A stretch of DNA of 38,764 nt from an uncultured Prevotella sp. GTDB taxonomy: Bacteria; Bacteroidota; Bacteroidia; Bacteroidales; Bacteroidaceae. This document shows positions 20,911-38,764 of the stretch, piece after piece; position 1 is the first letter of the stretch, and each line of letters opens with the position of its first letter. Made by a program: the position numbers and the translations under genes. The stretch covers positions 1 to 38,764 of the forward strand of contig CAMTJK010000001.1 in NCBI GenBank assembly GCA_947072805.1. The letters run 5' to 3'. The notes beneath the pieces are model-generated. The model saw only the letters and a program-made list of their open reading frames with translations, made no database searches and was not told where the DNA came from.

Positions 20911-20944
20911 TTTGCTTACTCTCATTTTTTTATGAGTACCTTTG
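20911..20944 (+). promoter_or_regulatory. Promoter of the antitoxin/GNAT pair, with an inverted repeat between the boxes
   Basis: TTTG at 20911-14, TACCTTTG at 20937-44, and CTCAT-N6-ATGAG at 20921-36. Confidence 0.5.
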
Positions 20945-20984: not shown

Positions 20985-21179
20985 ATGGCACTACCGATAG
21001 CATCCATACCAGTACCGACTGGTGAAGTGGCTCTGCGATTCGAGGGGCGTGCGCAGGCTAATTACCAGCGATACCTCAGCCTATCGGAAGAGCAGAAGAA
21101 AGCAGACGAGGCTATTCTTGAAAAGAAGTTTGCCGAGTTGTATAGCATGTTGTCAAAAGCTCATTTAGGAAGAAGATGA
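20985..21179 (+). CDS. Small protein, putative antitoxin partner of a GNAT toxin
   Basis: 64 aa starting MALPIASIPVPTGEVALRFE. Its TGA overlaps the next ATG (ATGA at 21176-79). It resembles small genes found upstream of Bacteroidales GNAT genes, from recall. Confidence 0.6.
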   Translation: MALPIASIPVPTGEVALRFEGRAQANYQRYLSLSEEQKKADEAILEKKFAELYSMLSKAHLGRR

Positions 21180-21395
21180 GTTTTTTGAAAGAGCACTTAT
21201 TCTGGATGCCGATTTGTGATTGTTGACGCATATAACACCCCATCAACGATGGTGTTTTATGAGCAAAATGGTTTCACAACATTATTCAGTACAGAGCAAC
21301 AAGAGAAAGACTACCGTCACATCACCTCAGAAGCAACATTGAGCACTCGCTTGATGTTTTACGACTTGATGTCGATGGTTGAAGAGTATAGGTAG
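21176..21395 (+). pseudogene. Internally deleted GNAT acetyltransferase (putative TA toxin)
   Basis: MSFLKEH... stops after 16 codons. Another frame reads SGCRFVIVDAYNTPSTMVFYEQNGFTTLFSTEQQEKDY...TRLMFYDL*, a GNAT C-terminus (VDA and FY.xNGF motifs). Confidence 0.75.
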
Positions 21396-21653
21396 GAACA
21401 CGTATTCATTCCTGCCACCCTGCAATGGGGACATAGACAAGAATACAAGGTTGAAATAAAACGTGAATAAGAAGAAACAGACATTAAAGGTAAACAGAAA
21501 CGCGGGCGGGATATCAGAGCCAAAGGCTTACTGACTCCCAATGAGAGAAAACAAGCATGAGGCACAAGCCTCAAAATCATTAACTCGGCGTTTCCGTTCT
21601 GAAAACTTGATAAAGGACATTATATAAAATATTGAGCTTTTAGTTCTTGTTCT

Positions 21654-21780
21654 CTTCTACAAGAATACCGCCAAAATTCAACGCATGAGGACAAGCAGAC
21701 TGAAAGTTCACGCTCGTTGGGCGTGGACTATTCTGTGCTTGTTATGCGTATAGGTCACTTGGCGGTAACCTTTGTAGAAG
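21654..21780 (+). ncRNA. Long multi-stem RNA hairpin in the 5' leader of the peptide/pilin cassette
   Basis: Nested pairs cttctacaa/ttgtagaag, taccgccaa/ttggcggta, acgcat/atgcgt, acaagca/tgcttgt and agttcacgctc/gggcgtggact (with G-U pairs). Confidence 0.7.
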
Positions 21781-21824
21781 GCAGGCAAAAGAATGGTTGC
21801 ACGCCTATTTTTTATTCTACAATA

Positions 21825-21956
21825 ATGAAAGAAATCAAAAAGAGACAATATGTGAAGCCTCAAATGGCTATTTATAATGTTGATAGTCCGCAACTATTAG
21901 CTGGGAGTGGCAATGGTGAGACAGAAAGACTGAACGAAGAAGATTACGAGTGGTAA
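21825..21956 (+). CDS. 43-aa peptide MKEIKKRQYVKPQMAIYNVDSPQLLAGSGNGETERLNEEDYEW
   Basis: ATG at 21825 in AT-rich context. The YxKP...LLAGS pattern is typical of small Bacteroidales peptides upstream of lipoproteins. Confidence 0.75.
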   Translation: MKEIKKRQYVKPQMAIYNVDSPQLLAGSGNGETERLNEEDYEW

Positions 21957-21977
21957 CATAATAAAGGATAAAAGAAA

Positions 21978-23516
21978 ATGAAAAAGTATATACAATCAGT
22001 GATGGCTCTTGTAACCGTCATGTCATTTGCTTCATGTTCGTCAGATGACAACGAGACCATTGACAACACAGGCAACACCAAGGTGATGTCGTTCACCGCC
22101 ACACAGGAAGGAACGGGCACACGCGCGGCAATCAACCCGCATGACAAGACGGAGATTGTTTGGGAGGAAGGAGACAAGATAAGTGTGATTACAGGTCATT
22201 ATCCAGCTACGTTTACATTGCGCGAGGGTGCAGGCACTGCCTCCGCAAAGTTTGAGGGCTCGACAATGTCAGCAAATTCTTATTTGGCTGTCTATCCATA
22301 TATCGATAATTACGATGTGCTATATTCTGAAGACTATATAGATAGGATTACGTTTCCAGCCAATCAGACCGCCACACCTAATGGCTTTGACAAGAATGCG
22401 GCATTTATGATGGCACAAAGCGAGAACACCACGTTGAATTTCAAGAATGCCGTGGGTTATATTAAAGTGACGCCACTGTTTGATTGCAGCAAGATAGAGT
22501 TGAAAGCAGCAAACGAGACTTATGCATTGGCTGGTACTGGAACACTCAGTTATAATTATGGAGAACCTTCAATCTATATTTCAAATAGTGCCACAGACAA
22601 GTCATATACCATCACGCTCAACGGTAATATCGAATCCGGCAATACATATTATATCGCCGTTCCCTCTGTAACCCTCACCGCAGGATGGACCCTCTCCTTC
22701 ACCACATCTGACGGCAGCAAGGTTTATACACGCAAGGGAAACAAAGAAATATGGATTAAGCGCAATACAGTAATCAATCTTGGAAAGTTTGCTACCGATG
22801 GTAATTATGGGAATGATGAAGCTAGAGGCATCGTAAGAGCCGATCAGGAGGTAGATATGGGACTGACTATTACGAAAGACGGCAAGAACTACAAGATCAT
22901 CTTCGCCAAGAGCAACCTCACGGCAACAGGTCTTGCAGAGAACGAATCCGACTTTGGCGATTATTTTGCCTGGGGAGCGTTAGAGCCTTGGTATACAAGT
23001 ATTACTACCACGTCCTCATCTGTTACCGTCAATGCATGGAAAGACGACAAATCCGAAGGTTATTCATACGGGAATTGCCCATCTTATGGCAATAATTCTT
23101 ATGTAGAGAATGATGTTTTGAAGATAGATTATGATGCTGCCCGCCAGGTTCTTGGCGGCGACTGGCAGTTGCCTACTAAAGAGATATGGAAGGCATTGTC
23201 AGATGCCAATAAGACTTCGGTGTATTGGGGAGCTGATGGAGAAAAGGAACTCGAATATATTGATGGTATTCAAGGTATGAAGATAACCAAGAAAGAAGAC
23301 AACTCCACTTACCTTTTCTTGCCTGCTGCTGGTTTCCTCATAAACACGAGCTCCAACAATATAGGTTCCTACGGCTACTATCGGTCGGGTACAGCCTACT
23401 CGGATACGTATGCGTATTGCTTGGACTTCTGCACTGGTAACTTCTATCCTCAGAGCCTCTACCAACGTTTCTATGGATGTCCCATCCGCCCCGTGCGCTT
23501 AGTCCCAGTTGAATAA
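21978..23516 (+). CDS. Type V pilin/fimbrillin-like lipoprotein with a C-terminal C-type-lectin-like (DGR-target-like) domain
   Basis: Lipobox FASC; GTR followed by W-x-x-GD-x-I-x-V; C-terminal domain VDMGL...GDYFAWG...DAA...GGDWQLPT...FLPAAG...G.Y.S...R..G.PIRPV. Confidence 0.78.
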   Translation: MKKYIQSVMALVTVMSFASCSSDDNETIDNTGNTKVMSFTATQEGTGTRAAINPHDKTEIVWEEGDKISVITGHYPATFTLREGAGTASAKFEGSTMSANSYLAVYPYIDNYDVLYSEDYIDRITFPANQTATPNGFDKNAAFMMAQSENTTLNFKNAVGYIKVTPLFDCSKIELKAANETYALAGTGTLSYNYGEPSIYISNSATDKSYTITLNGNIESGNTYYIAVPSVTLTAGWTLSFTTSDGSKVYTRKGNKEIWIKRNTVINLGKFATDGNYGNDEARGIVRADQEVDMGLTITKDGKNYKIIFAKSNLTATGLAENESDFGDYFAWGALEPWYTSITTTSSSVTVNAWKDDKSEGYSYGNCPSYGNNSYVENDVLKIDYDAARQVLGGDWQLPTKEIWKALSDANKTSVYWGADGEKELEYIDGIQGMKITKKEDNSTYLFLPAAGFLINTSSNNIGSYGYYRSGTAYSDTYAYCLDFCTGNFYPQSLYQRFYGCPIRPVRLVPVE

Positions 23517-23526
23517 CACACACAAC

Positions 23527-23580
23527 AAAGCATTTCGTGCTGGTCCGCATTCCGCAGGTCAGCACGAATTGTTTTTATTT
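23527..23580. terminator. Hairpin between the convergent pilin and HTH genes (likely intrinsic terminator)
   Basis: ttcgtgctg (23534-42) pairs with cagcacgaa (23560-68), followed by a T-rich tract. Confidence 0.65.
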
Positions 23581-23943
23581 CAATCTTTGTTGTCTCTGTT
23601 GCCAGAGTTTATCTATCTCCTGACGGTGTTCGTCCTCGTCCGAGTAGAGCCATTCGATGTAGTCGGCTCGCTGTGAGGTGTGGTCATCCAGCCGAGAGAA
23701 ATCACGGAGATGGACGACATACTTCTCCTCGATGGTCCTCAGCCTTGGTGACAGCAACCTCTTGATGTCAGAGAAAGCATAACGTTTACGTCTGCCCGCC
23801 TTGGCGGCTCTCAGATAACCAGCCTTGTCCCATGCCCAAAGGGTGGTAGTGCAGACATCGCACATCTTGCATGCTTCCTCCGTGGACAGCTTTTTCCCCT
23901 CAACGGCTGCCTGCTCCAGTCTCATCAGTTTGTGTTCATTCAT
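23575..23943 (-). CDS. MerR/excisionase-like HTH DNA-binding protein; 5' end interrupted by the repeat element (original ATG at 24454)
   Basis: LSTEEACKMCDVCTTTLWAWDKAGYLRAAKAGRRKRY is an HTH_17/MerR-like pattern. Confidence 0.72.
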   Translation of the reverse strand: MNEHKLMRLEQAAVEGKKLSTEEACKMCDVCTTTLWAWDKAGYLRAAKAGRRKRYAFSDIKRLLSPRLRTIEEKYVVHLRDFSRLDDHTSQRADYIEWLYSDEDEHRQEIDKLWQQRQQRLK

Positions 23944-23985: not shown

Positions 23986-24439
23986 TAATGGTGATTTGAT
24001 ACGTATAACATTTATTTACTTTTATGAAAAATCTTGACTTTAACGTGTGTTAATAGGCACCCAAACCTCGGTTTGAAACCTACGACGCGAAAATGAGCGC
24101 TTTTCATCTAAAATAGGGAGCGCTGATAGTCAGAAAGTTACGTGTTTTGCGATCTAATACCATTTCATCGGTTTACGATTACGTACGTGAGCTCATTGCG
24201 ATATAGCTTTTATCGCATCGTCGTTACGTCGAAATCGCATTGCGATTTCATCGTAATGGCGATGCCAATACGACGTAATCGCGTTGCCAAAAAACTGGGA
24301 TCGTTTTTCGACCCATCGGGACCATAATTCGACCCACTTTCATTAACAAATATTTACACCTAGAATGCCGAATTTAAAAATGTTAAATTCGACCAAATAT
24401 CTTTACAAATTAACTTTCATTAAGTGCAGTTACGAGCCC
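23986..24439 (-). mobile_element. ~450-bp non-coding dispersed element, copy 2, flanked by the 9-bp duplication GCCATTTCT
   Basis: Reverse complement of 265..715; GCCATTTCT at 23977-85 and 24440-48. Confidence 0.88.
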
Positions 24440-38127: not shown

Positions 38128-38371
38128 TTATAAAACGGTACGATGATGCAAAGTTAGCAAAATCTCGCACATTATTGAGTTATATGTCCCGATTTTCTGA
38201 AATGCGTGCCCTTTGCTACAGTAGAAAAAATAGAGTAGGAGACGAGAAAAAATAATGAGACGAGAACGAGATTTCTTTTATTATGTGATGGTACGCGCAG
38301 TTTTGTGATTAGTAATTGAAAGATACAATTTGATGCCTGATACAGTATTCTCTATGATAACTAAAGCGAGC

Positions 38372-38764
38372 GCTCGTAACTGCACTTAATGAAAGTTAAT
38401 TTGTAAAGATATTTGGTCGAATTTAACATTTTTAAATCCGGTATTCTAGGTGTAAATATTTGTTAATGAAAGTGGGCCGATTTATGCTCCCGACGGGTCG
38501 AAAAACGATCCCAGTTTTTTGGCAACGCGATTACGTCGTAATGACATCGCCATTACGATGAAATCGCATTGCGATTTCGACGTAACGGCGATGCGATAAA
38601 AGCTATATCGCAATGAGCTCACGTACGTAATGGCAAACCGATGAAATGGTATTAAATCGCAAAACGCGTAACTCGCTGACTATCAGCGCTCCCTATTTGA
38701 GATGAAAAACGCTCATTTTCGCGTCGTAGGTTTCAAATCGAGGTTTGGGTGCCGATTAACACAC
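38372..38764 (+). mobile_element. ~450-bp non-coding dispersed element, copy 3 (truncated by the window end)
   Basis: GCTCGTAACTGCAC...GATTAACACAC is colinear with 267..659. Confidence 0.85.

Follow-up and report, generated by a model that had tools for sequence, protein, structure and literature searches.

The DNA stretch analysed here (the window) comprises 38,764 nucleotides (nt) of an uncultured Prevotella sp. (contig CAMTJK010000001.1 of assembly GCA_947072805.1) and contains a cassette composed of a structured RNA leader, a gene for a peptide of 43 amino acids (aa) and a gene for a 512-aa lipoprotein. The first-pass annotation had regarded these parts as a self-contained adhesin module, in which the RNA regulates expression and the peptide is a dedicated partner of the pilin-like lipoprotein. 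Our analysis, which is based on sequence and structure comparisons, suggests that the leader, and not the three-part unit, is the find, and that it belongs to a multi-copy RNA family which is absent from Rfam and probably acts as a transcription attenuator. The locus contains the following features:

20937..20944, + strand: -7 promoter box TAnnTTTG; sole + strand match from 20800 to the peptide gene
20985..21395, + strand: toxin-antitoxin-like remnant, a 64-aa open reading frame (ORF) and an internally deleted GNAT-type gene
about 21387..21830 (~440 nt), + strand: portable leader module, 78-87% identical to relatives at other chromosomal sites
21472..21480, + strand: AAG-AAA-CAG motif, at the spot of the ATG-NNN-stop mini-ORF of another subfamily
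21496..21600, + strand: predicted 5' domain, in which 21496-21503 and 21588-21600 form the closing helix; covariation test not significant
21634..21654, + strand: region 1, partner of region 2 (anti-antiterminator)
21654..21780, + strand: rod (antiterminator state) with P1a, GAA/RCC loop, P1, P2 and region 2:region 3
21666-21674 with 21759-21767, + strand: rod stem P1; the outer P1a and P2 are variable stems
21687-21713 with 21720-21743, + strand: rod arms, region 2 (5' arm) paired with region 3 (3' arm)
21780..21816, + strand: region 4 (21780-21805), which forms a terminator-like stem together with region 3, and U tract (21806-21816)
21825..21956, + strand: gene for the 43-aa YxxP...LAGS peptide, unnamed small-protein family
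21978..23516, + strand: gene for the 512-aa type V pilin-fold lipoprotein, pilin fold 31-278, C-type-lectin-fold head 282-512
about 23527..23580, + strand: terminator-like hairpin, flanked by the pilin gene and a convergent HTH_17 gene

The individual parts described in the first-pass annotation were recovered. The 127-nt hairpin at 21654-21780 has a folding energy of -59.1 kcal/mol (z -8.6), which was reached by none of 200 shuffled sequences. The peptide gene, which appears inside a longer TTG-started frame in the ORF list, begins 44 nt 3' of the hairpin with the ATG at 21825, and its stop codon ends at 21956; the lipoprotein gene follows after 21 nt and encodes a lipobox with Cys20 as well as Arg49. 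The hairpin at the end of the cassette (about 23527-23575, -24.8 kcal/mol) enters a T-rich stretch and is absent from the list of a simple terminator scan. The assumption that the RNA is a regulator gained support, as the leader is conserved and, by two covarying folds, likely regulatory; what had been missed is that the 127-nt hairpin makes up just the central part of a longer leader, the switch portion of which spans 21634-21816.

Two exclusive folds of the leader RNA

Related leaders were collected with a 21-base two-part pattern derived from the rod stem, and the reversed pattern served as control. The set of close copies comprised 140 sequences, as four of 144 distinct copies were removed (more than 92% alike or too near an end), and five Prevotella-like matches were left out of the order-wide tests on partner swapping, the mini-ORF and R-C-C. 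Four segments of the leader pair in two mutually exclusive ways: either regions 2 and 3 form the rod, or region 1 pairs with region 2 and region 3 with region 4, the latter yielding a stem that ends in the U tract. Among the close copies, 97.6% of the cells of the rod are paired and 12 of its 24 pairs are double-changed, while 96.2% of cells are paired and 21 of 30 pairs double-changed in the alternative state; for either fold, none of 500 shuffles, a control that ignores kinship, scored as high. The P1 arms are invariant in the close-copy alignment by construction of the search pattern, and covariation of P1 is taken from the order-wide alignment alone. There, the rod is paired in 92.3% of cells, with 303 double changes compared to 75 after shuffling (89 copies), and the stem fixed by the pattern covaries strongly. 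A base that the rod leaves bulged has a partner in region 4 (A-U in 71, G-C in 36 and G-U in 26 of 140 copies), and in disjoint nearest pairs this pairing was kept in 12 of 13 double changes; the covariation of this base cannot be a by-product of the rod. Furthermore, duplex energies of own versus swapped partners gave z values of -10 to -15 for 1:2, 2:3 and 3:4 in the close copies and of about -15 in the 84 distant ones (-10 to -16 overall), and no pairing signal was obtained for control pairings including 1:3 and 2:4, with the exception of region 1 with 4a, which are complementary by design. G-U exceeds A-C by 245 to 9 and 534 to 21, which indicates that the sense strand is the folded strand.

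Region 1 is paired with region 2 in the best fold of the part-made transcript, at the point where region 3 starts to emerge, in all 140 close copies, and 134 of them have at least five U among the 8 nt that follow the 3:4 stem. A Bacteroidetes -7 box is located 160-380 nt upstream in 62 of 99 copies (9.4 after shuffling). The window copy has no such box within 160-380 nt; the box at 20937 is the only one on the + strand between 20800 and the peptide gene, and the window leader is thus probably read from this promoter, by a transcript that runs through the toxin-antitoxin remnant.

The marks of an attenuator are present, namely the 1:2 pairing, a 2:3 pairing that is exclusive of both others, and a 3:4 stem with an unusually long loop that is followed by a U tract. 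We therefore think it likely that the leader is a transcription attenuator, which gates whichever accessory gene follows and which, as 1:2 forms first, is probably off by default. Region 1 would capture region 2 as soon as it is made, so that region 3 could pair with region 4 just ahead of the U tract and the polymerase would halt about 15 nt 5' of the peptide start. Timely displacement of region 1 by region 3 would instead give the rod, in which region 4 stays single-stranded, and transcription would continue. The outcome would then depend on a race between a persistent 1:2 pairing (stop) and the rod (go).

Several observations weigh against this interpretation. In 136 of 140 copies, the rod is more stable than the alternative fold, with a median difference of 9.3 kcal/mol, and the default-off state therefore rests on the order of folding and not on energy; in the window, the rod (-70.2 kcal/mol) is favoured over the alternative (-66.8 kcal/mol) by 3.4 kcal/mol. 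The 3:4 stem encloses a loop of ~60 nt, unlike a standard terminator, and is not called by a simple terminator scan. In a check of six single columns with independent pairs, two columns were clear and the other four weak; a single double change, half-kept pairing or a score of 4 of 7 was obtained for three of the six. Moreover, the tested structures were drawn from the same sequences, which inflates the slid-pair control. The RNA evidence stems from four of 12 listed metatranscriptome runs and consists of assembled contigs of relatives (85% cut-off), which show neither ends nor co-transcription; a drop in cover after the leader in these contigs is expected from the differing cargo and is no evidence. 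Finally, no shared regulator gene was found among the 59 upstream neighbour proteins scanned (59 of 89 found).

The long 3:4 loop and the higher stability of the rod, together with a first start codon that is usually close 3' of region 4 (19 nt past the stem in the window), would also fit a mechanism in which both folds are real and govern translation or RNA stability of the first gene instead of termination. However, the U tract directly follows the stem in 134 of 140 copies, neither of the predicted switch states needs the start region, and some copies lie more than 200 nt from the next long ORF, and we thus consider control at this level improbable.

Other candidate elements of the leader were rejected. 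For the pairing of a region 0 (21496-21503) with 21588-21600, own and swapped partners did not differ significantly (262/2000, n=73). A leader peptide over region 1 (window ORF 21541-21627) was dismissed since, judged by eye, its frame is not kept in other copies, and mimicry of the signal recognition particle RNA was discarded because the order of motifs is reversed in comparison to 4.5S RNA and no Rfam match was obtained.

Candidate triggers of the switch

Our first, tentative choice for what would tip the balance between 1:2 and the rod is a host factor, with RNase P as the lead candidate, which would lock the rod by binding or cutting its conserved base. The 7-9 bp P1 stem is followed by R-C-C in 139 of 140 close copies and in 81 of the 84 distant ones, though P1 itself covaries, and a GAA before the P1 stem is also kept. 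RNase P substrates obey an R-C-C rule. The rod base, with its stem and R-C-C, resembles hairpin-type RNase P substrates such as 4.5S, CI and C4 RNA (PMC5499578). A putative RNase P cut at this position would separate region 1 from the rod and thereby fix the switch in the on state.

A trigger to which we give less credit is a ribosome that lingers on a two-codon upstream ORF, which is absent from the window copy. Among the distant copies, 29 of 83 have an ATG-NNN-stop ORF at a constant position, compared to 8.3 in shuffled sequences and to 3-5 when the stop is placed out of frame; among the close copies, the count is 53 of 135 (22.8 in shuffled sequences). The ORF mostly lies 27-37 nt (in most distant copies) or about 150 nt upstream of region 1, too far away for simple masking. 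The sequence A(A/C/G)G-AAA-CAG occurs in 53 of 135 close copies, the window among them, and 12 of these also possess the mini-ORF. On a par with the lingering ribosome we place a plain kinetic partition that would result in low or mixed expression; a trigger of some other type seems improbable.

The conservation of R-C-C despite the covariation of P1 could also mean that the rod is excised by RNase P as a small RNA, which acts in trans on nascent leaders of its own kind in a manner similar to P4 CI or P1 C4, and that the variable stems provide copy specificity. The P1a and P2 stems are only 62-67% identical in 17 close pairs, compared to 93% in the neighbouring spacer, and are still paired; however, template switching in hairpins can also give such fast paired change. 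Hairpin RNAs including CI and C4 are indeed RNase P substrates (PMC5499578), yet CI pairs with two targets, one on each side (PMC4825925), whereas in the leader the 5' arm has its match in region 1 and the 3' arm in region 4, as in a cis-acting attenuator. In addition, both rod arms are locked to each other, neither an Rfam C4 match nor a match in the phage collection was obtained, only five viral contigs matched, and no antirepressor cargo was seen. Excision of a trans-acting RNA is therefore unlikely. The same low credence is given to a proposal in which an RNase P cut at the tRNA-like base of the rod locks the on state and the released or terminated leader RNA, through its copy-specific variable stems, feeds back on its own copy only, which would constitute a portable RNA-only on/off gate for accessory surface genes throughout the Bacteroidales. 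If this were true, each surface gene would switch independently, cell by cell, without DNA inversion or a dedicated protein.

Distribution of the leader and its relation to the peptide and the pilin

The rod-stem pattern was present in 54 of 301 genomes of the same genus, whereas the reversed control gave zero matches, and it was also found in five viral contigs and at no fewer than 120 loci of the GTDB collection. The 80 GTDB loci listed belong mostly to Prevotellaceae, Bacteroidaceae and other Bacteroidales; five come from other phyla and were judged to be chance matches (L049, L051, L063, L066 and L089, left out together with L138), and three typical copies reside in records titled Bacillota or Clostridium. 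With a covariance model built from the 140 copies, the leader was detected in 44 of 151 genomes sampled from the whole order, a single genome having as many as 16 scored copies. Within the same family, 35 of 101 genomes gave a match, and these represent 19 of 27 genera; in the phylum-wide set, it was three of 101 genomes, the window's genome counted among them. Cultured species such as Paraprevotella clara, Xylanibacter caecicola and Palleniella possess it as well. The window's genome also contains two distant copies, upstream of a predicted secreted-protein gene and a lipoprotein gene, as well as a partial one (C196:4754-4949, C213:2910-3099 and C39:15734-15922). No Rfam covariance model, including those for riboswitches, Bacteroidales-1/2, Prevotella-2, FopS and C4, matched the leader at the gathering score or with E up to 10, none matched the related leaders in seven loci, and no leader match was found in the phage collection. 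An Acido-Lenti-1 RNA match above the Rfam gathering score was seen in the Bacteroidales locus L255 (727-772).

Leader copies are mostly single and not arrayed; tandem copies with one gene each were observed in L269 (1501-1697 and 2403-2598) and also in L348. Rod-less alleles occur in L007, L174, L255, L261 and L264, those in L174, L255, L261 and L264 being related alleles in which the interior of the rod is missing, and such natural alleles would be predicted to be locked on. The existence of rod-less alleles, the presence of the same module at different sites before unrelated genes and the toxin-antitoxin or PD-(D/E)XK genes that adjoin several copies would be compatible with a palindrome that works as DNA, for instance as a recombination or capture site for cargo similar to integron attC, and the strand asymmetry also fits a hairpin of single-stranded DNA. 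However, no recombinase family is common to the 59 upstream neighbours, the copies are mostly single, and the promoter box, the mini-ORF, the U tract and two alternative pairings are features of an RNA switch, which makes a DNA site very improbable.

The first genes downstream of the leader differ almost every time and encode 175 proteins that fall into 135 clusters, most of them with predicted export signals: a crude rule, which overcalls, assigned such a signal to 85 of the 98 cargo proteins of close copies and to 56 of the 77 of distant copies, compared to 671 of 1719 ORFs of the own genome, a large contrast. The largest cluster consists of 21 proteins and has, by eye, the look of leucine-rich-repeat or type IX cargo. 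The leader is not tied to the pilin. The nearest leader modules (78-87% identical) are located at other chromosomal sites, each before unrelated genes, and among the 140 close and 89 distant copies the peptide is found directly behind the leader in the window only (1/229; about 40 of the close copies in this count have 300 nt or less of downstream DNA). The dedicated three-part unit proposed in the first-pass annotation is thus not borne out.

The pair of peptide and pilin, by contrast, recurs. A related peptide is encoded directly before five of seven close homologues of the pilin (45-51% identity) and before two of seven distant ones; the remaining two close homologue genes instead follow a pilin gene whose product ends in a tail that looks like the peptide's second half. 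Several of the homologue loci share a genome or a sample series and are hence not independent. Among 93 loci with pilin or lectin domains, three have a clear distant leader (L213, L187 and L256) and six show a weak match to its 3' part (E 0.02-0.12). In L256 (1013-1268), a full distant relative of the leader (E 3e-8) with a much longer rod precedes the peptide-pilin pair, and the N-terminal extension of P0154 reads through region 4, which shows that a related leader-peptide junction exists in another assembly. The leaders at peptide-pilin loci imply that the recurring pair was placed behind leaders of this superfamily more than once. These observations would speak for a single co-evolving adhesin module of leader, peptide and pilin; however, the peptide stands behind one of 229 leaders and the cargo is spread over 135 clusters, only two of seven distant pilin homologues are preceded by the peptide, and peptides with the same start are found behind genes of the type IX secretion type. 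The three-part module is largely refuted as far as the leader is concerned, and we give it next to no credence. Judged by these sequence comparisons, the peptide travels with the pilin gene and not with this leader.

The suggestion that the peptide is a dedicated partner holds in so far as it recurs paired with the pilin, but the same YxxP-start peptides also occur without a pilin. Peptides of this type, 52-64 aa in length, are encoded directly behind genes with a type IX secretion-type C-terminus (G000 contigs C55, C56 and C140; L080, L081 and L206). The 43-aa peptide has no signal peptide, and its family has no name in Pfam, NCBIfam or Atlas. A lasso-peptide precursor was rejected: the best E value was 0.13, in three of 14 members, and no maturation genes lie beside the peptide gene. 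Pilins that end in a tail similar to the second half of the peptide are encoded at L174 (2447-4066), L176, L266 and P0013, and the look-alike tails on some pilins led us to the guess, which we rate as rather unlikely, that the peptide is a donor-strand-like helper. When a natural tail-bearing homologue was folded alone, its tail was left unplaced (pLDDT 31-41); this provides no support for the donor-strand idea, although the anchor strand was present in the model and few rows of the alignment include the tail.

That the lipoprotein is pilin-like was upheld by structure prediction. The AlphaFold model of the 512-aa protein has a mean pLDDT of 91; residues 31-278 match the two-domain fold of type V pilins (3UFI, Z 14.1, rmsd 3.8, 212 residues aligned), and the head (residues 282-512) resembles C-type-lectin folds, with a middling match to Mtd (1YU0, Z 7.0, rmsd 3.1, 135 residues aligned). 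4EPS aligns over both parts. Weak matches to Fib_succ_major and Lcl_C were found in the head, and the protein ends right after it, without a C-terminal donor extension. The protein has a lipobox with Cys20, an anchor strand (residues 34-43) and Arg49, each motif recurring in 18 of 21 full-length homologues. The model thus has the layout of a type V tip pilin whose head is a C-type-lectin fold, and, by analogy with type V pili, export as a lipoprotein would be followed by cleavage at Arg49 and display as a tip adhesin. No anchor or stalk gene is adjacent to the pilin gene, and tblastn detected no second homologue of the 512-aa protein in the genome, a search that leaves aside distant pilins elsewhere in it. 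The gene was also considered as target of a diversity-generating retroelement (DGR); neither a reverse transcriptase nor a template repeat was found in the 240-contig assembly, which is 90% complete.

The cassette is surrounded by housekeeping genes, and its immediate flanks are the toxin-antitoxin-like remnant and the convergent HTH_17 gene. Of the GNAT-type gene, only the last ~60 residues align to an intact 198-aa relative in L166, and most of the middle is lost; the GNAT and toxin-antitoxin labels for 20985..21395 are our assumption, and the remnant has no match in Pfam or NCBIfam. The HTH_17 (excisionase-like) gene (23575-23943, - strand) is present once in the genome and converges on the pilin terminator. 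In L171 and L088, a short leucine-rich-repeat-like cargo gene is followed by a similar zinc-finger/HTH gene, and in L171 then by an integrase-like gene; this arrangement is perhaps an element that inserts into such genes. The window also contains three copies of a 439-nt repeat with an internal palindrome (265-703, 24001-24439 and 38363-38764), which are 93-95% identical. At least 12 copies of 300 nt or more, plus many pieces at contig ends, are found in the genome, and the repeat is likely a non-autonomous mobile element.

Comparison with known systems

Bacteroidales gain and lose many surface and secreted genes, and an order-wide RNA switch that moves among them would be a further layer of control, which could account for the silence of surface genes after their acquisition, or for their expression in some cells only. 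Controls of Bacteroidales surface genes include DNA inversions and NusG-like antiterminators. In the literature covered, neither the leader nor the peptide-pilin pair was found to be described, including PMC7366714, PMC5737381 and PMC2864571. The main texts of PMC11109978 and PMC8632094 contain no match to Bacteroid, and the readable supplements of PMC8040213 no match either; its large archives, and likewise the set of 1.5 million motifs of bioRxiv 10.64898/2026.10.21.760802, may hold the leader family unnamed.

The layout of type V tip adhesins has been described in bioRxiv 10.1101/2024.11.15.621889 and PMC13655056. The lipobox, the Arg site, the two-domain fold and the lectin head of the window pilin are shared with the tip adhesins BACOVA_04982 (PDB 4EPS) and BfrT, BthT and BunT (the former paper). 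The window pilin differs from known type V tips in that it lies behind a 43-aa peptide gene and has no anchor or stalk gene next to it. Furthermore, BfrT, BthT and BunT are DGR-diversified, whereas the 90% complete genome of the window yielded no reverse transcriptase or template copy.

Like the leader, the FopS small RNAs of Bacteroides are multi-copy non-coding elements of Bacteroidaceae that are tied to surface proteins (PMC11697453). FopS, however, is described there as a trans-acting RNA with a single-stranded stretch and one terminator, and it is reported to have been deposited in Rfam, whereas the leader has no Rfam match. P4 CI, P1/P7 C4 and Gifsy-1 IsrK share with the leader a long leader RNA with an internal hairpin that matches its flanks and a stem followed by R-C-C (PMC4825925 and PMC5499578). 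The systems of P4 CI and P1 C4 are distinguished by same-sense targets on both sides and by control of phage antirepressor or replication genes, neither of which was found for the leader: its flanks are of opposite sense, its cargo does not consist of antirepressor or replication genes, and it rarely occurs in phages.

Attenuators of the same general kind as the one proposed here include that of the E. coli trp operon. The closest likeness is to vmlR of B. subtilis, which also has three overlapping, mutually exclusive pairings that end in a stem with a U tract and, like part of this leader family, a very short upstream ORF of variable sequence (PMC9226507). The mini-ORF of the leader, however, is confined to a subset of copies, with the window copy not among them, and in the distant copies it is mostly located 27-37 nt before region 1, which is beyond the 16-nt toeprint reported for vmlR. 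In contrast to vmlR and trp, the leader is present in multiple copies per genome before unrelated genes, mostly for exported proteins, and its predicted terminator has a loop of ~60 nt.

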